UHGV virus genome: UHGV-0142834
Reading direction: 5' to 3' (one strand)
Source: a virus
DNA: 13,224 bases
Part shown: piece by piece, positions 270 to 10,795 of the stretch
Layout: the number at the start of each line of letters is the position of its first letter
How positions within the stretch are numbered: position 1 is the stretch's first letter
Position numbers and translations under genes: made by a program
The notes under the pieces: model-generated
Told to the model about the DNA's origin: nothing
Seen by the model: only the letters and a program-made list of their open reading frames with translations
The model's database searches: none

Positions 270-1448
270 ATGGCTATAAGCGACACAAAACTGCGTACTA
301 TTTATGGTAAACCATATTCGGGCCCACAAGAAGTGGCTGATGCCGATGGCCTCAGCGTACGAATTTCACCGAAGGGGGTCATCCAGTTCCAGTACCGCTA
401 TCGCTGGCATGGCAAGCCTAATCGACTTGGGCTTGGTCGATACCCATCCCTGTCTTTGAAGGATGCCAGACAGATCACTGCTGACTTGCGAAAGCTCTAT
501 TTCTCAGGAACGGATCCACGCACCTATTTTGAAGAGAAGGTGGAGAACTCCATGACGGTCGCCCAGTGTCTCGACTACTGGTTCGACAACTACGTCTCTA
601 CAACTCTCAGAGAAAAGACCCAGGCACTTTACCGATCAACGGTTATGAAGCGCATGCATGACGCCTTTCCTAATCGTCCGGCATCTTCTATCACGGTTAA
701 GCAATGGGTTGACCTGCTTACCGAAGAAGAAAGAGATAATCCACGCCGAGCAAGGCAGGTGCTAAGTCAACTAAGATCAGCAATAAGTTGGTGCATGCGG
801 CGTCAGTTGATAGATAGTTGCGCAATTATGAGCATCCAACCAAGGGACTTCGGCTCCCGCGCTGAGGTAGGGGATCGGGTACTGTCGTATCACGAACTGG
901 CTAAGATTTGGCTTGCTATTGAAAGAAGCCGTGCGTCTACGTCAAATAAGCTACTTCATCAGATGCTTATGCTGTGGGGGGCGAGGCTCTCAGAGCTTAG
1001 GCTGGCAACAAAGACAGAATTTGACCTGCTGGACAACGTATGGACCGTACCGAAAGAGCATAGCAAGATGGGTAATGTTATCCGTCGTCCAATCTTCGAA
1101 CAAATTAAGCCTTTTCTCGAAAAGGCCATGACAACGTACAATGATGTTCTTTTCCCTGGAGAAGACATAAACAAACCGATCAGCATCGCTGCAGCCAACC
1201 GATTCGTAAATAGAATAAGGGGAGGGATGGATCTAGGTTACTGGCGAACACATGATTTCAGAAGAACGCTTGTTACACGTCTGTCCGAGATGAATGTCGA
1301 GCCTCATGTTACTGAGCGAATGCTCGGTCATGAACTTGGCGGGATAATGTCCGTGTACAATAAACACGACTGGATAGAGGCTCAGCGCAAAGCTTATGAG
1401 CTTCACGCTGATAAATTGTTCTGGCACATCAGGAGCATTTCTGGTTAA
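270..1448 (+). CDS. int: Tyrosine site-specific integrase, P4-type (N-terminal arm-binding-like domain plus C-terminal catalytic domain)
   Basis: 392 aa ORF with ATG start. N-terminus (GKPYS..DGLSVRISPKG..FQYRYRWHGK..LGLGRYPSLSLKDAR) resembles the P4/IntS-type integrase N-domain. C-terminus has tyrosine recombinase motifs (HDFRRT, LGHELGG..SVYNKHDW with the catalytic Tyr). Confidence 0.9.
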   Translation: MAISDTKLRTIYGKPYSGPQEVADADGLSVRISPKGVIQFQYRYRWHGKPNRLGLGRYPSLSLKDARQITADLRKLYFSGTDPRTYFEEKVENSMTVAQCLDYWFDNYVSTTLREKTQALYRSTVMKRMHDAFPNRPASSITVKQWVDLLTEEERDNPRRARQVLSQLRSAISWCMRRQLIDSCAIMSIQPRDFGSRAEVGDRVLSYHELAKIWLAIERSRASTSNKLLHQMLMLWGARLSELRLATKTEFDLLDNVWTVPKEHSKMGNVIRRPIFEQIKPFLEKAMTTYNDVLFPGEDINKPISIAAANRFVNRIRGGMDLGYWRTHDFRRTLVTRLSEMNVEPHVTERMLGHELGGIMSVYNKHDWIEAQRKAYELHADKLFWHIRSISG

Positions 1449-5060: not shown

Positions 5061-5543
5061 TTATTTGATAAGAAGTGAAGGTTTCCCAACCTTGAGTTGA
5101 GCGCCTGGGATATTTATTCCTGCTTTTAGTTGGTGCTTGATTGCCAACTTGTCGGCTTTAATTGTCGTTTCAAACTCAACGTATTCAGGAGGAAGGGCGC
5201 TTGAGTCGATGATTTCTACAGTTTCTGACGGTTTGCGGATTGTTACCTGGTGAATACCTGCTCTAATCTTTTTCTTGCCAACCATTTCAAGCGATGACGC
5301 TATATATGATTTGATGCTGTCAATCTTATTTTGAATTACTGCGGCTCGCTCATTCAGTGACTTTGCCTCTTCCTTGAGGCGTTCAGCATAACCAGATTCA
5401 TTTTTAATAATGGAAAGAAGTTGCTCTATTTTATCGATAAATTCTCCTTCCATGCCTTCTATTGTGTCAGCAATCATCTCTGGCTCTAAATCTGAATCCA
5501 TCAATTTTGCGTATTCATTGGCAATTTCATACAGTTTGCTCAC
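5061..5543 (-). CDS. Siphovirus Gp157-family protein, a recombination-module accessory protein
   Basis: Track ORF begins at a TTG placed directly after GGAGG, which is implausible. The GTG at 5543..5541 has GGAGG at a 6-nt spacer, giving a 160-aa product. N-terminal LYEIANEYAKLMDSD.. and C-terminal ..PPEY...IPGAQLKVGKPSLLIK match my recollection of the Gp157 family pattern; it sits directly downstream of recT. Confidence 0.6.
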   Translation of the reverse strand: MSKLYEIANEYAKLMDSDLEPEMIADTIEGMEGEFIDKIEQLLSIIKNESGYAERLKEEAKSLNERAAVIQNKIDSIKSYIASSLEMVGKKKIRAGIHQVTIRKPSETVEIIDSSALPPEYVEFETTIKADKLAIKHQLKAGINIPGAQLKVGKPSLLIK

Positions 5544-6429
5544 TGGCAACCTCCAGTTTCGCTTTGCATTCTGCGTAAATGGCTTGTACGTTCTGCTGCA
5601 ATTTCATTCCAGATGTCAGGCGATATGCTTCTGCAAAATATCGCTTCAAATCATCCATGTTTTCTGCCTGAGCCATTTCATCACAAAGAAGTTGTGCTTT
5701 TTCCATAATTTCCTGCTGGCGTTTCCGTTCATCTTCGCGGATATCTTCCTCTGATTTGTGCGGCATAACTGGTTCCTGATGCATACCTTCATCTTCGTTA
5801 AGCAGGTGAATGGCATTATCCAGTCGCTGGGCTTTAGGCCAGTATTTGCTGGCGCGTTTAACTATTGTTTTACGCGCCATCTCTTCCCAGAATGTCTTCC
5901 ACGGTCCATTCTTTGCCTTGCTCGTTGCTTCCACAGCTTTAATTTCTGCCAGACTCATTTCTTCAGTGAGGTAGTCACCATCTGCTGTTTTAACCGTACA
6001 ATAACCACCAACAATAGAGCCTCGCTCACCAAATGCGTTGTATTTGTGGGTTGGTGCTGAATCAAGGCCGTTTGATTCATAGGTGTCGTTTGAGTACACC
6101 AGTTTGCATTGCCCCCACTTAATTGATCCTGTCGACTGTGCAAGGTGAAGTAATCCCATATAGCTGATATCAAGGCAAACCATGCCGTCGCGCGGAACTA
6201 GATAAGCAAGTTTGCTGGCCGGGTTTAAGGTGATGCCGATCGCCGCAACATTGATGATGGCGTTCTGTGCGCTGGTTGGATTTGCCAGTGCCGTTTTAGC
6301 CAGGTAATCGTTTTTCTGGAAATACTGAATTGCAAACTGGCTTTCCTTAGCCCATGTCACCGTCTGTTCAGTCAATGCTCCGCAGAATAACTGCTCCTGC
6401 TGTTTAACGAATTCAACGATATTGCTCAT
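5527..6429 (-). CDS. recT: RecT-family single-strand annealing recombinase
   Basis: 300 aa, ATG at 6429 with GGAG at an 8-nt spacer. The motif NGPWKTFWEEMARKTIVKRASKYWP closely parallels Rac RecT NGPWVTHWEEMAKKTAIRRLFKYLP. The ATG overlaps the upstream gene's TGA (ATGA). Confidence 0.85.
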   Translation of the reverse strand: MSNIVEFVKQQEQLFCGALTEQTVTWAKESQFAIQYFQKNDYLAKTALANPTSAQNAIINVAAIGITLNPASKLAYLVPRDGMVCLDISYMGLLHLAQSTGSIKWGQCKLVYSNDTYESNGLDSAPTHKYNAFGERGSIVGGYCTVKTADGDYLTEEMSLAEIKAVEATSKAKNGPWKTFWEEMARKTIVKRASKYWPKAQRLDNAIHLLNEDEGMHQEPVMPHKSEEDIREDERKRQQEIMEKAQLLCDEMAQAENMDDLKRYFAEAYRLTSGMKLQQNVQAIYAECKAKLEVASEQTV

Positions 6430-6737
6430 GCTGCTTCTCCAAAAATGTGTCTGCGCTTGAATATTGCGAAGGCATATTCAGCCTTAACTCTTTCGGTTAT
6501 TGCATCCCAGAACCATTCAGCGGCTTTTTCCTGATAGTTACAGTCATCATCTTCCAGCCAGTCGATAGCGTCCTTAGTGTGTTCATCTGGTTTATATGAG
6601 CGAAGCATTTCGCTTATTGGGTCGCAACGTTTGCAGAGGCGATCAACTTCACTGTTGATTCGTTCGTAATCATCATCGGTAAAACTTGCGATGATTTGCG
6701 ATATTTCACGCTTATCATTCAGAGTCAGAATCATCAT
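6426..6737 (-). CDS. Hypothetical acidic protein in the gam position (possible host-nuclease inhibitor analogue)
   Basis: 103 aa, ATG at 6737 (or 6734) preceded by AGGAG with a 5-nt spacer. Rich in Asp/Glu and Trp (DDDYER, DWLEDDDCNYQEKAAEWFWD). Translationally coupled to recT. No similarity to lambda Gam noted by eye. Confidence 0.6.
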   Translation of the reverse strand: MMILTLNDKREISQIIASFTDDDYERINSEVDRLCKRCDPISEMLRSYKPDEHTKDAIDWLEDDDCNYQEKAAEWFWDAITERVKAEYAFAIFKRRHIFGEAA

Positions 6738-6822
6738 CTTTCTCCTGTTCTTTGTGCTGATTGAGCATTTTGTTCATCTGACGAATGAATTCTTCGTCTG
6801 ACCAGTTATCTGTAAAACTCAT
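6715..6822 (-). CDS. Small ORF (35 aa) in the kil position, not on the supplied ORF track
   Basis: Hand-translated: MSFTDNWSDEEFIRQMNKMLNQHKEQEKDDDSDSE. Its ATG (6822..6820) overlaps the TGA of the CIII-like gene (ATGA), mirroring the lambda cIII-kil overlap. Its 3' end overlaps the start of the 103-aa gene in another frame. Confidence 0.35.
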   Translation of the reverse strand: MSFTDNWSDEEFIRQMNKMLNQHKEQEKDDDSDSE

Positions 6823-6989
6823 GGACGGACTTGTTGTTTCAAAATATCCCAAAGCTTTTCGAGCAAACTTTTCATTCTTGGTTGTTTAAAGTCTGCTCCG
6901 GTTAAAATATTTTTTCGTGAATGCTGTACCGATAAAATCGGGTTGAAAGGGCGAACCGATGCCGCCCCTGCAATAGCGAACTGTTGCAT
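6819..6989 (-). CDS. CIII-like protein (candidate FtsH inhibitor, 56 aa)
   Basis: Start placed at the ATG 6989..6987 with AAGGAG at a 6-nt spacer; the track ORF starts further up at a TTG. N-terminus MQQFAIAG resembles lambda CIII MQYAIAG, and the C-terminal SLLEKLWDILKQ resembles the CIII amphipathic helix. Comparison is from memory. Confidence 0.45.
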   Translation of the reverse strand: MQQFAIAGAASVRPFNPILSVQHSRKNILTGADFKQPRMKSLLEKLWDILKQQVRP

Positions 6990-7050
6990 AGGATGCTCCT
7001 TCTGTTTGATTGCATAACGAAAACGCCTCGAGTGAAGCGTTATTGGTATG

Positions 7051-7079
7051 CATATAAAAAGGCCCTCACACTGGAGGGC
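7051..7079 (-). terminator. Intrinsic terminator for leftward transcription (tL-like), between the accessory cassette and the cIII-like gene
   Basis: Minus-strand hairpin GCCCTC-cagtgt-GAGGGC (7062..7079 on +) followed on the minus strand by CTTTTTATAT. The stem is only 6 bp. Confidence 0.45.
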
Positions 7080-7183
7080 AAAGAAGATTTCCAATAATCA
7101 GAACAAGTCGGCTCCTGTTTAGTTACGAGCGACATTGCTCCGTGTATTCACTCGTTGGAATGAATACACAGTGCTTACTCGTA

Positions 7184-7654
7184 CTAATAAAATACCCAAT
7201 TTTCTGTTTCTTGGTTGTGCCCAAAGTTATATTCAATATCTGGTGTTGATGTATCAATATTCTTCATCCCATCAACAAGAGTTGATACAACAGCCAAATC
7301 TTGTTTGATTCTCATTAAATGGTATTTCTTCCGGCGCAATAAACTCTCAATGGCAAGTTTCTTCGTTGGGAATGCAAAAGATCTTTCTGCATTTTTTGCT
7401 ACTTTCTTAATTGCATATCTATTTCTCCTTTGTTTCCATTCCTGTAACCACTGATTTGGTGCTGGTTTAAAATTAACAATCCAATGCGCAGGAACCAACC
7501 ATGCATAATGCTCTGTCTGATGAAAAGCTATATATTGAAGTGCGAATATTTTTATCCCATCTTCTTCAACTGTCGCTTGGAATCTCCAGAAAACAGGCAT
7601 TCCATCATGTTCAGTTTCTGATTCAGGAAAAGGTACGCTCCATGATTTTGTCAT
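7184..7654 (-). CDS. Hypothetical protein (156 aa), accessory cassette gene 2
   Basis: ATG at 7654 preceded by GAGGTG with about a 5-nt spacer. Trp-rich with a basic C-terminal half; no motif I recognise. The local sequence is AT-rich. Confidence 0.65.
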   Translation of the reverse strand: MTKSWSVPFPESETEHDGMPVFWRFQATVEEDGIKIFALQYIAFHQTEHYAWLVPAHWIVNFKPAPNQWLQEWKQRRNRYAIKKVAKNAERSFAFPTKKLAIESLLRRKKYHLMRIKQDLAVVSTLVDGMKNIDTSTPDIEYNFGHNQETENWVFY

Positions 7655-7717: not shown

Positions 7718-8341
7718 CTATGCGGCCTCGGAAGGAAGTCCAATCATCTTATTCAAATCTTCTACCCGTAAAGCAGGAAGTGCTGTACTTGCTTTATCTG
7801 CTTCTTTTGGTAGCAATTCTTTGCTTTCAGGCCAAACTTCAATAAGTCGCTTAACTGTTGTGACTGAGTTCAAAGCACCCCATACATTTGATTCGATATC
7901 CTTTTTCAAGGCTTCAAGGTTTTGTTGCAATGCGCAGATTTCATCAAACCTTTTTGTTATTTCGTGTTCTGCGTCAAACATGCACTTATCTTTGGTTGGA
8001 GTAGGGAGAAATATATCTTCGCCATTGCCGTCTTTCCCATATGAATGCCATCCAACCCTTCTGCCAGATACAGTCAGATAAATTGAAGTAGAACGAAAAT
8101 CGTATGAGTAAAATGAACATCCCATCTTTTCAAGTTCTTCACTTATAGCTACCAACTTGGATGATAACTGATCCACTTCCTCAGTTTTCTTTTTACCGCC
8201 AAACGCAATAACTCTGGCGTCAAGTGCAAGCTGGTTCTTTAACTTTGTTACTTCTTCAAGTTCAGTGAAAACCCCAGACTTAATTAAAGCGTTACGAGCG
8301 ATTTCCTCTTTCATTCTCGTAGTTAAGCGGATTGATGACAT
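7718..8341 (-). CDS. Hypothetical protein (207 aa), accessory cassette gene 1
   Basis: Start placed at the ATG 8341..8339 (MSSIRLTTRMKEE..) preceded by GAGAGG with a 7-nt spacer; the track's longer ORF would overlap the end of N. Coiled-coil-like N-terminal half; no motif I recognise. Confidence 0.65.
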   Translation of the reverse strand: MSSIRLTTRMKEEIARNALIKSGVFTELEEVTKLKNQLALDARVIAFGGKKKTEEVDQLSSKLVAISEELEKMGCSFYSYDFRSTSIYLTVSGRRVGWHSYGKDGNGEDIFLPTPTKDKCMFDAEHEITKRFDEICALQQNLEALKKDIESNVWGALNSVTTVKRLIEVWPESKELLPKEADKASTALPALRVEDLNKMIGLPSEAA

Positions 8342-8352
8342 ATTAATTCCTC

Positions 8353-8679
8353 TCAAATAAGTGGTTTGCTGCCTAATTTCATTTTCTGGCGACCAACACA
8401 AGTCACACCCATTTCACTGCGTGGCTTGCTGTACCATGTGCGCTGATTCTTGCGCTCAATACGTTGCAGGTTGCTTTCAATCTGTTCGTGGTATTCAGCC
8501 AGCACCGTAAGGTCTATCGGATTCAGTGCGCTTTCTACTCGTGATTTCGGTTTGCGATTCAGCGAGAGAATAGGGCGGTTAACTGGTTTTGCGCTTACCC
8601 CAACCAACAGGGGATTTGCTGCTTTCCATTGAGCCTGTTTCTCTGCGCGACGTTCGCGGCGGCGTGTTTGTGCATCCAT
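8353..8679 (-). CDS. N: Antitermination protein N (lambda N-like)
   Basis: Start at the ATG 8679..8677 with AGGAG at a 7-nt spacer. MDAQTRRRERRAEKQAQWKAANPLLVGVSAKPVNRPILSLNRKPKSRVESALNPIDLTVLAEYH.. matches the lambda N arginine-rich motif and most of the protein as I recall it; the C-terminus diverges. Confidence 0.9.
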   Translation of the reverse strand: MDAQTRRRERRAEKQAQWKAANPLLVGVSAKPVNRPILSLNRKPKSRVESALNPIDLTVLAEYHEQIESNLQRIERKNQRTWYSKPRSEMGVTCVGRQKMKLGSKPLI

Positions 8680-8851
8680 CTGGATTCTCCTGTCAGTTAG
8701 CTTTGGTGGTGTGGTAGGTGGGAGACCCATTTCGACCTGCTTCGGCCGACTTCAATTCGGCAATAGTTCCGCAGGCCTCGCCGCTTTACGTGCGACATAT
8801 TCCCATCCATGAACCCTTCACCACACCCCAAAGCCTTCTGCTTTGAATGCT

Positions 8852-9371: not shown

Positions 9372-10058
9372 TCAAACTTTTGGCAGATCGTCCTGGTCTA
9401 CGTACCTGGTGTGTTTCACAATAGCTGAAACAAAATGCATTTTATCAACTTCTTCAACAGGAAGAGTGATTGGGCGGTGATCACTGTTTATGCTACTAAA
9501 CTGATAATCACCGTCTCTTGTTTTGTTCATGATCTTTATCATGTTGTGACCGTCTTTGGTCCTTACAAAGACTTCATCACCTGGATGTACTGGCGTATTT
9601 GGTTCAATAACAACATATTCTCCTGACTGAATCCTTGGCCACATGCTGTCACCCTTAACCTTCAGACCGTAAGCATCTTTATCGCCGCTGTAGATGCTTA
9701 ACCAACCGGATCTGAATTCAATCATATCCACTGAGCCATCAACTCCCAAAACGGCTTCACCAATTACCGGAACAAAACCCGCACGAACGTTACCCGCAAA
9801 CTCAAGATGGTCCGTAGCTCCAGCTTTACCATCTGCAAGCATGTCCATCCATCCGCGTGGGAGATTAAAAGATTTTTCAATTAGTTCCATCATATCGTCA
9901 GCAATGCGTTTTTTTCCGCTTTTTCCTTCCGGATACAGCATTCTGGAAACGTATGATGGTTCCCTTTCTATTCGACGAGCCAACTCTGAGGCCTTTCCAT
10001 TACAGAATCGGTCTCTTATCTCTATCAGCCTTAGTCGTCTTTGTTCGTATTTATCCAT
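9372..10058 (-). CDS. cI: CI-type prophage repressor (N-terminal HTH, C-terminal LexA-like S24 peptidase domain)
   Basis: 228 aa, ATG at 10058. HTH region NGKASELARRIEREPSYVSRML. C-terminal KVKGDSMWPRIQSGEYVVIEP..GDEVFVRTKDGHNMIKIM contains the S24 Ser/Lys dyad context. Divergent from cro with operators between them. Confidence 0.9.
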   Translation of the reverse strand: MDKYEQRRLRLIEIRDRFCNGKASELARRIEREPSYVSRMLYPEGKSGKKRIADDMMELIEKSFNLPRGWMDMLADGKAGATDHLEFAGNVRAGFVPVIGEAVLGVDGSVDMIEFRSGWLSIYSGDKDAYGLKVKGDSMWPRIQSGEYVVIEPNTPVHPGDEVFVRTKDGHNMIKIMNKTRDGDYQFSSINSDHRPITLPVEEVDKMHFVSAIVKHTRYVDQDDLPKV

Positions 10059-10513: not shown

Positions 10514-10795
10514 ATGGGTACTATTGCAACTAAAAGCAAGAAAGCGGCTCGCATCGAGTCAGCCTTGCTGAACAAACTGGCACTGATGGGGCAGAAGACA
10601 TTCGCTCGAGCAATGGGGGTTCCTGAATATCAGGTAAGCCGATGGAAGAATGGTTTCTTCTCGCAGGTAAGCATGATGCTGGCTGTTCTGGAATACGGAA
10701 TCGAAGACGATGAAATGGCTGAGCTGACTAAGCGGCTTGCCAATTACCTGACAAAAGAAAAAGCCCCGAAGAACGGCGAATTCTTCGAGGCCTGA
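10514..10795 (+). CDS. cII: CII transcriptional activator (lambda CII-like)
   Basis: 93 aa. RIESALLNKLALMGQKTFARAMGVPEYQVSRWKNGFFSQVSMMLAVLEYGIEDDEMAELTKRLANYL parallels lambda CII RIESALLNKIAMLGTEKTAEAVGVDKSQISRWKRDWIPKFSMLLAVLEWGVVDDDMARLARQVAAIL. Confidence 0.85.
   Translation: MGTIATKSKKAARIESALLNKLALMGQKTFARAMGVPEYQVSRWKNGFFSQVSMMLAVLEYGIEDDEMAELTKRLANYLTKEKAPKNGEFFEA

Follow-up and report, generated by a model that had tools for sequence, protein, structure and literature searches.

The CIII protein of phage lambda is an inhibitor of FtsH and stabilises CII, and the Kil protein of lambda and HK97 is a ZipA-dependent inhibitor of FtsZ. The literature recognises two classes of CIII, the lambda class and the HK022 class, and residues 14-37 of lambda CIII form an amphipathic helix of approximately 24 residues, which activity requires and which suffices for it (PMC1838920). 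The lambda class, including P22 C3 and the 933W protein, is represented in Pfam by PF02061 (Lambda_CIII), and the HK022/HK97 class by PF08134 (cIII). The activity of Kil (PF06301) requires a helix-turn-helix core together with a basic C-terminal RSK/RSSK motif (PMC11762379). In P22, the corresponding genes are arranged in the order c3-kil-arf-erf. The arf product, an accessory recombination function (PF17585), is characterised by genetics only: recombination is helped by it but can proceed in its absence, and its mechanism is unexplained (PMC12315714); its genetic phenotype was observed in P22 (PMC12315714, citing Poteete 1991). HK97 gp42/gp42.1 and HK022 gp42.1 (phrog_2123 and phrog_17766) are small proteins annotated as hypothetical or, loosely, as 'recombinase'.

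A pair of small overlapping ORFs in the PL operon of a lambdoid phage or prophage is compared here with these systems. The pair probably consists of a divergent cIII and the small gene with which the recombination module begins, which is Arf-like and not kil. The ORFs themselves, their synteny, their mosaic junctions and their similarities at the profile level are directly seen, and we infer FtsH inhibition by ORF56, the 56-codon ORF, a recombination-accessory role for ORF35, the 35-codon ORF, and translational coupling.

Gene order and mosaic junctions

The window, i.e. the whole stretch of 13,224 nt that was analysed, represents the early-left (PL operon) region, and its positions 6300-7300 are 98-99% identical to phages vB_EcoP-611R6, E212, HK140 and mEpX1. 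It encodes an N-like antiterminator (8353-8730), a CI-like repressor (9372-10058) and a CII-like activator (10514-10795; phrog_191, E=2e-35), and genes for an integrase, a Rec module, Cro, an O-like initiator and a DnaB-like helicase are recognised as well. ORF56, also called cIII-56 (6989..6819, minus strand, stop included), comprises 56 codons from the ATG at 6989 to the TGA at 6821-6819; its product, MQQFAIAGAASVRPFNPILSVQHSRKNILTGADFKQPRMKSLLEKLWDILKQQVRP, begins with MQQFAIAG and ends with SLLEKLWDILKQQVRP. ORF35 (6822..6715, minus strand) comprises 35 codons from the ATG at 6822 to the TGA at 6717-6715 and specifies the acidic peptide MSFTDNWSDEEFIRQMNKMLNQHKEQEKDDDSDSE. The stop codon of ORF56 and the start codon of ORF35 share the 4-nt sequence ATGA (6822-6819, minus strand), as read directly from the DNA. 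ORF35 overlaps by 20-23 nt with the start of the next gene, ORF103 (6426..6737, minus strand), whose AGGAG (6746-6742) and ATG sit within the part of ORF35 that encodes the acidic tail. The function of ORF103 is unassigned: it belongs to phrog_3486 (E=6e-59), Pfam and NCBIfam scans returned nothing useful and a PDB sequence search was empty. It is followed by recT (6429-5527, minus strand; PF03837, E=2.5e-33) and a Sipho_Gp157 gene, giving the order cIII-ORF35-ORF103-recT-gp157.

Two overlapping ORFs of 56 and 35 aa had been proposed here in an earlier note made from the DNA alone, and their coordinates and sequences proved to be correct. Both ORFs are more than chance. Of 5426 complete E. coli genomes, 124 contain the intact 275-nt pair, with both ORFs called by PGAP as hypothetical proteins, and 1101 contain parts of it. 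cIII-56 is widespread: approximately 20% of these genomes carry it at least partly. In the RefSeq records of HK140 and mEpX1 the 56-aa gene is already labelled CIII, as is the HK542 protein, which differs by 1 aa.

The leader upstream of ORF56 (7022..7079, minus strand) contains, according to a terminator scan, a terminator-like hairpin (7079-7062) with a T-run and a second hairpin (7041-7022), and its predicted fold has a z-score of -2.7. The AAGGAG Shine-Dalgarno sequence (6996..7001, minus strand) lies 6 nt ahead of the ATG. In the DNA alignment, both hairpins and the AAGGAG differ little from those of the HK97 cIII leader, and the HK97 record annotates a putative terminator at this position. 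AAGGAG is retained in the leaders of HK97, Kapi1, HK542 and SPN9CC, and the leader is common to cIII-56 cassettes and to cassettes consisting of HK97-type cIII and kil. Searching Rfam with the region (E<=10) and with the whole window retrieved no family, including the lambda cIII thermosensor. ORF56 would be translated from this strong AAGGAG site behind a conserved structured leader.

The DNA alignment resolves the locus into three parts: the conserved cIII leader; a variable cassette, which is either HK97-type cIII plus kil or cIII-56 alone; and a segment that starts at the exact ORF35 ATG, where 50 nt are shared before the sequence tracks the downstream recombination module. This 50-nt junction (6773..6822, minus strand; ORF35 codons 1-16) is identical in the window, Kapi1 and HK97, and shows 2-6 differences in HK542 and SPN9CC, with differing, non-homologous flanks. 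RNA structure was rejected as the reason for this conservation, because the predicted fold of the 50 nt is not unusual (z=-0.9). In the window, cIII-56 alone would take the place of HK97-type cIII plus kil, flanked by two conserved junction sequences; HK97-type cIII is always accompanied by an overlapping kil, whereas cIII-56 stands alone. Judged by its sequence, the locus has an ordinary lambdoid mosaic architecture, and a textbook-clean one, with junctions exactly at gene starts and at the ribosome-binding site.

The overlap of the two ORFs had been taken to reproduce the lambda cIII-kil overlap, a claim that does not survive comparison, as the lambda overlap spans 32 nt and that of HK97 16 nt, vs 4 nt here. 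Four nucleotides is instead the geometry of the junction between kil and the next gene in HK97, HK022 and Kapi1. The ATGA junction is used after kil in these three phages and also after cIII-56 homologues (loci L012-L015). It may couple translation of ORF35 to that of the upstream gene, which is kil in most phages and cIII-56 in the window.

The slot of ORF35 and its relation to Arf

In Kapi1, the order of genes is cIII, kil, exactly the same 35-aa ORF, a 102-aa ORF and recT. HK97 and HK022 carry cIII, kil, a gene of 56-83 aa with the identical start MSFTDNWSDEEFIRQM, and erf. The Kil proteins of all three phages match PF06301 (E=1.7e-20). HK542, SEN22 and SPN9CC resemble the window in that the small gene directly follows cIII-56, and kil is missing. 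When 80-nt junction queries were used, kil was found upstream of the ORF35-type start in 57 phage records and cIII-56 in 35. Since the family is located 3' of bona fide Kil, and since P22 has the order c3-kil-arf-erf, the slot of ORF35 corresponds to that of P22 arf and not to the kil position assigned to it in the earlier note. The same slot, after c3/kil and at the head of the recombination module, is occupied at loci L005-L007 and L009-L015; ORF35 thus lies where an Arf is expected. The window contains no recognisable kil, as tblastn with the Kil types of lambda, HK97 and P22 gave noise only. As far as sequence can tell, the phage is without kil, and ORF35 is part of the recombination module.

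Comparison with PHROGs places ORF35 with phrog_17766 (E=5e-16) and phrog_2123 (E=3.5e-10), followed by the Arf family phrog_2445 (E=0.06). HK97 gp42/gp42.1 and HK022 gp42.1 are direct members of the ORF35 family, sharing the first 16 codons and the ATGA-coupled start identically; they differ in their tails after residue 16, which are longer (56-83 aa), and in being followed by erf instead of ORF103 and recT. The family, which was searched from an alignment as the single 35-aa sequence is too short for a word-indexed protein search, comprises >130 clusters, and the exact 35-aa protein is present on at least 1000 contigs. Its conserved positions are D5, W7, D9, F12, I13 and M16.

In a BLASTP comparison with P22 Arf (MQHEFSDEEFIALIS...), ORF35 aligns WSDEEFI with FSDEEFI (E=0.005). 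Alignment of the two families by hhalign gave a probability of 84% (P=7.6e-6) over 22 N-terminal columns, and none of 300 column-shuffle controls reached this score; the profiles include the sequences of the divergent loci and of Buttiauxella described below. The same ORF35 profile yields P=0.69 against Kil. ORF35 and P22 Arf have in common that they are small acidic peptides heading the recombination module 3' of c3/kil, with an N-terminal helix of the pattern (F/W)(S/D)(D/E)(E/D).FI..(L/M). ORF35 has a pI of 4.3, a net charge of -7 and the tail DDDSDSE, and the pI of Arf is 4.05, vs 9.6-11 for Kil proteins. AF2 predicts a single helix in ORF35, spanning residues 9-31. The likeness does not extend to the conserved C-terminal half of Arf (QINLAAER...W.EFAGYYS), which has no counterpart in the ORF35 alignment, where ORF35 ends in its acidic tail; furthermore, ORF35 precedes ORF103 and RecT and does not abut erf. 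ORF35 and five relatives gave no match to the Arf model PF17585 at E<=10, a search in which P22 Arf scored 121 bits and the Buttiauxella Arf 41 bits. Scanning ORF35 against NCBIfam likewise yielded no useful match.

The Buttiauxella prophage carries a cIII-56 homologue, a 67-aa ORF, a Pfam-recognised Arf (41 bits) that begins with MSAAELWDEKAFTELMLDM, and erf. The sequence of this Arf is intermediate between the ORF35 group and the Arf group. The 67-aa ORF was also considered as a P22-type Kil and rejected, as comparison with P22 Kil revealed no similarity. Divergent ORF35 homologues of 31-34 aa are found at loci L013-L015, where they are ATGA-coupled to a cIII-56 homologue and overlap the next gene by 4 nt. 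One of them, MNTPVKDWSDDAFIRLMKDLLKPEKKEQEKQQ, is followed by a 97-aa ORF and recT, another, MNIPVKDWSDDALIRLMKDL..., by a Rad52-like gene, and a third, MSQQSPRDMTDEQFARLMKDL..., by a 102-aa ORF and an exonuclease gene. ORF103 homologues come after the small peptide at the relatives' loci L009, L013 and L015; in the window, it is ORF103 that separates ORF35 from recT.

These comparisons point to ORF35 as the small gene that opens the recombination module, with an N-terminal helix, D-W-S-D-E-x-F-I-R-x-M, that would share ancestry with the N-terminal half of P22 Arf, and with a putative recombination-accessory role. Its acidic tail would be set by the downstream module and would carry the ribosome-binding site and the start codon of ORF103.

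A second reading, possible though unlikely, assigns no protein function to ORF35. It would be a short linker that hands ribosomes to the next gene, and the 50 nt would persist as a recombination junction between the cassette and the Rec module. Such a role fits their 100% identity between non-homologous flanks in the window, Kapi1 and HK97. It also fits the C-terminal tails of the family, which vary freely and are unrelated to each other (35, 56, 60 and 83 aa), with frameshift variants being tolerated, such as the frameshift by which HK97 and HK022 differ. Among close relatives, non-synonymous changes in ORF35 are as common as or commoner than synonymous ones. The pN/pS ratio of approximately 0.4-1 was obtained over only 15 alignable codons and is underpowered, so that constraint at the protein level is neither demonstrated nor refuted by it. 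ORF35 is left unannotated in the HK140 RefSeq record. Because of its free tails, the frameshift, the pN/pS ratio, the lack of a Shine-Dalgarno sequence of its own and the ORF103 ribosome-binding site and start inside it, a coupling ORF stays a serious rival. What speaks against it is the persistence of a 31-34-aa ORF at 49-71% nucleotide identity, with the pattern W/M-x-D-x-x-F-x-R-L-M-K-D-L and 4-nt overlaps at both ends. Moreover, the conserved ORF35 positions coincide with invariant positions of Arf, a protein that in P22 has a genetic phenotype (PMC12315714, citing Poteete 1991).

ORF56 and the known CIII classes

The CIII-like nature of ORF56, which the earlier note had suggested from its first residues, is borne out by several lines of evidence. 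In PHROGs, ORF56 matches the CIII family phrog_550 with E=1.3e-21. When an alignment of 16 family members was compared with lambda and P22 CIII by hhalign, the match ran from end to end with a probability of 87.8% (P=3.3e-6) and needed two 6-residue insertions. An alignment of 29 members, which takes in distant ones from an exhaustive HMM search, matched over 14 columns at the N-terminus with a probability of 94.9% (P=4e-8). None of 300 column-shuffle controls scored at or above the observed value. For calibration, comparing the lambda class of CIII with the HK022 class in this way yields no better than P=0.004. At the profile level, ORF56 shares with CIII the conserved, spaced N-terminal residues including two glycines. 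Operon context agrees with this assignment, because ORF56 lies behind its leader between N (8353-8730) and recT (5527-6429) in a phage that also encodes CII.

At 90% identity the family falls into 47 clusters, and at 50% it has 37 representatives, with this reading frame conserved. Neither of the Pfam CIII models, PF02061 and PF08134, matches ORF56 at E<=10, in a scan in which lambda and P22 CIII were assigned to PF02061 and HK97 CIII to PF08134 with E-values of 1e-26 to 1e-30. Only three of the 29 aligned members show any similarity to PF02061, and it stays below threshold (best E 0.003). ORF56 matches no NCBIfam model, and a cIII-56 family HMM run against 1.84 billion representatives recovered its own family only, with no bridge to canonical CIII. 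Taken together, the sequence comparisons support ORF56 as a distant but credible CIII homologue, which would constitute a third CIII sequence class.

ORF56 resembles lambda CIII in its N-terminal motif M-Q-x-A-I-A-G...G, in its C-terminal ending (K/R)L.DIL(K/N)Q..(V/R)P, in its size (56 vs 54 aa) and in its place in the PL operon, 3' of a terminator and of a structured leader that provides a strong ribosome-binding site, in a phage with a CII gene. The ending is clearer still in the family members P0212 and P0040 (...FLNQPGDP and ...FLCQPGQP; compare ...ILNQPGVP in lambda). In the direct pairwise alignment with lambda CIII that had been suggested, QFAIAG does align, but the match is weak (BLASTP E=0.025) and includes nothing else. 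ORF56 further differs from lambda CIII by the missing Pfam match, by the two 6-residue insertions, one of which falls in the equivalent of residues 14-37, by a family-specific central motif, FNPILSVQHSRKNILTGADF, and by the absence of a kil gene overlapping its 3' end. With the HK022/HK97 class it shares a nearly identical 5' leader DNA, the same ribosome-binding site, the same slot and the N-terminus (MMHFQLAGSGVMSAFYP vs MQQFAIAGAASVRPFNP; BLASTP E=0.002), whereas the rest is unrelated in pairwise comparison and the hhalign probability is 22%.

By homology and context, ORF56 would shield CII (10514-10795) against FtsH, a protease of the host, and thereby favour lysogeny. The insertion GADFKQ, followed by a proline, falls inside the region aligned to the essential helix of lambda CIII, and AF2 predicts only short helices in ORF56, at residues 17-22 and 42-51 (mean pLDDT 72). 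The family also has a strongly conserved central block of its own, F(N/D)PI.S(V/I)QHSR.NILTGADF, to which nothing corresponds in the CIII of lambda or of HK022. Because of the helix interrupted in the alignment, the short AF2 helices and this family-specific motif, FtsH inhibition by ORF56 is stated here as probable from homology and not as observed.

The same features also feed a rather doubtful alternative, in which ORF56 is of CIII ancestry but has a different or additional activity and does not act, or not only, as a competitive FtsH inhibitor by means of an amphipathic helix. Its C-terminal helix is predicted to have only about 10 residues, it falls outside both Pfam CIII families, and the cIII-56 cassette is swapped as a unit against cIII plus kil; from this replacement of the whole cassette, a role other than, or beyond, competitive inhibition of FtsH could be argued. 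ORF56 nevertheless retains the N- and C-terminal signatures of CIII, its leader and its operon position, and the window also encodes the CII partner. Between cIII-56 and arf of Buttiauxella lies a further gene of 67 aa, which indicates that the kil slot is not as a rule taken over by cIII-56. No observation speaks positively for another activity of ORF56. A divergent CIII thus remains the preferred reading of ORF56.

Kil and the biology of the pair

That ORF35 might be a non-homologous functional substitute of Kil, i.e. the FtsZ or cell-division inhibitor for which the earlier note had made it a candidate, is very improbable: its small size and a start that overlaps the stop of the directly preceding cIII in the window are all that it has in common with lambda/HK97 Kil, and Kil proteins can indeed be unrelated in sequence, as those of P22 and lambda are, but its homologues coexist with true Kil and sit 3' of it in the 57 phage records, its charge is opposite, it is predicted as a single helix and lacks both the helix-turn-helix core and the RSK motif of the basic Kil proteins (PMC11762379), Pfam, BLASTP and hhalign find no Kil in it, and it resembles Arf instead. 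The note's own remark that ORF35 has no visible similarity to lambda Kil stands, with pairwise BLASTP yielding no alignment. A hidden Kil was also sought in the alternative-frame 55-aa ORF at 6886-7053 ('DFIG') and rejected, since Kil tblastn gave noise only and since in protein databases this frame occurs only as single-member clusters, which read as frameshift hybrids of cIII-56. A false lead is removed, as the locus very probably holds no hidden Kil analogue.

With the pair read as a divergent CIII and an Arf-like first gene of the recombination module, a combined proposal can be made, although it is tentative and not the likely outcome: cIII-56 would be a functional third CIII class with a split helix, and the WSDEEFIRxM helix of approximately 25 residues would be the active part of Arf. 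If cIII-56 functions with a split helix, inhibition of FtsH would depend on something shorter than the 24-residue helix or on other features. The cIII-56 class is missed by both Pfam models and stands outside the two-class scheme of the literature. Peptides of the ORF35 type are usually named 'hypothetical', mislabelled 'recombinase' or left unannotated, and their link to the N-terminus of Arf would provide a testable handle on Arf. If true, the WSDEEFIRxM helix, which is found in ORF35, HK97 gp42.1 and Arf, would be a portable acidic adaptor for unrelated annealing proteins, such as RecT, Erf and Rad52-like proteins.

The cIII leader and the overlapping frame

The leader of cIII (window 6960-7095, minus strand) folds significantly better than its shuffled counterparts (z=-2.7) and contains a terminator hairpin (7079-7062, minus strand) as well as a second hairpin (7041-7022, minus strand). 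In the predicted fold, the AAGGAG ribosome-binding site pairs with an upstream CUUCU, an arrangement that recalls the structure-controlled translation of cIII in lambda. An Rfam search of the leader found no match. The leader is common to both cassette types, i.e., HK97-type cIII with kil, and cIII-56, the 56-aa divergent CIII homologue, alone. A 55-aa alternative-frame ORF (window 6886-7053, minus strand) overlaps cIII-56 and is probably not a gene; single-member database clusters, P0043 and P0044 among them, look like cIII-56 fused by a frameshift to this alternative frame.

Neighbouring genes of the early-left operon

Just upstream, a 156-aa ORF (window 7184-7654, minus strand; phrog_1636, E=3e-112) adjoins the cIII terminator and leader, and shares both length and slot with HK97 gp45. 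The PL operon also contains, with N on one side and cIII on the other, a gene for a protein with the nucleotide-modification-associated domain 5 (Nmad5; window 7718-8401, minus strand; PF18757, E=3e-70). An Nmad5 protein is also present in Kapi1. The integrase gene (window 270-1448, plus strand) is convergent with the genes of the early-left operon, which occupy the other strand.

ORF103 (window 6426-6737, minus strand; phrog_3486) encodes an acidic protein with a pI of 4.6, for which sequence searches of Pfam, NCBIfam and the PDB returned no matches. Peptides of the ORF35 type, named after the 35-aa acidic peptide of the window, are always followed by ORF103, both in RecT modules (the window and the distant locus L013) and in exonuclease-first modules (SEN22 and the distant locus L015). 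ORF103 is a conserved gene of the Rec module.

Small-protein annotation and the kil slot

HK97 encodes an 83-aa 'recombinase' (L005 1501-1752) with a counterpart in HK022 (L006 1501-1750), where the gp42.1 and gp42 CDSs, when joined by a frameshift, correspond to the HK97 CDS. The RefSeq name 'recombinase' for these small proteins looks like an annotation artefact, as does 'CIII anti-termination' for CIII.

In a Buttiauxella brennerae prophage (L012; LXER01000017.1), the cIII-56 homologue is followed by a 67-aa ORF (L012 3168-3371) and then by a genuine Pfam Arf. A Pfam scan of the 67-aa ORF gave zero matches, and BLASTP found no similarity to P22 Kil. Its position between the cIII-56 homologue and Arf is the true kil slot, and this uncharacterised ORF is a better candidate for a kil-position gene than ORF35 of the window.
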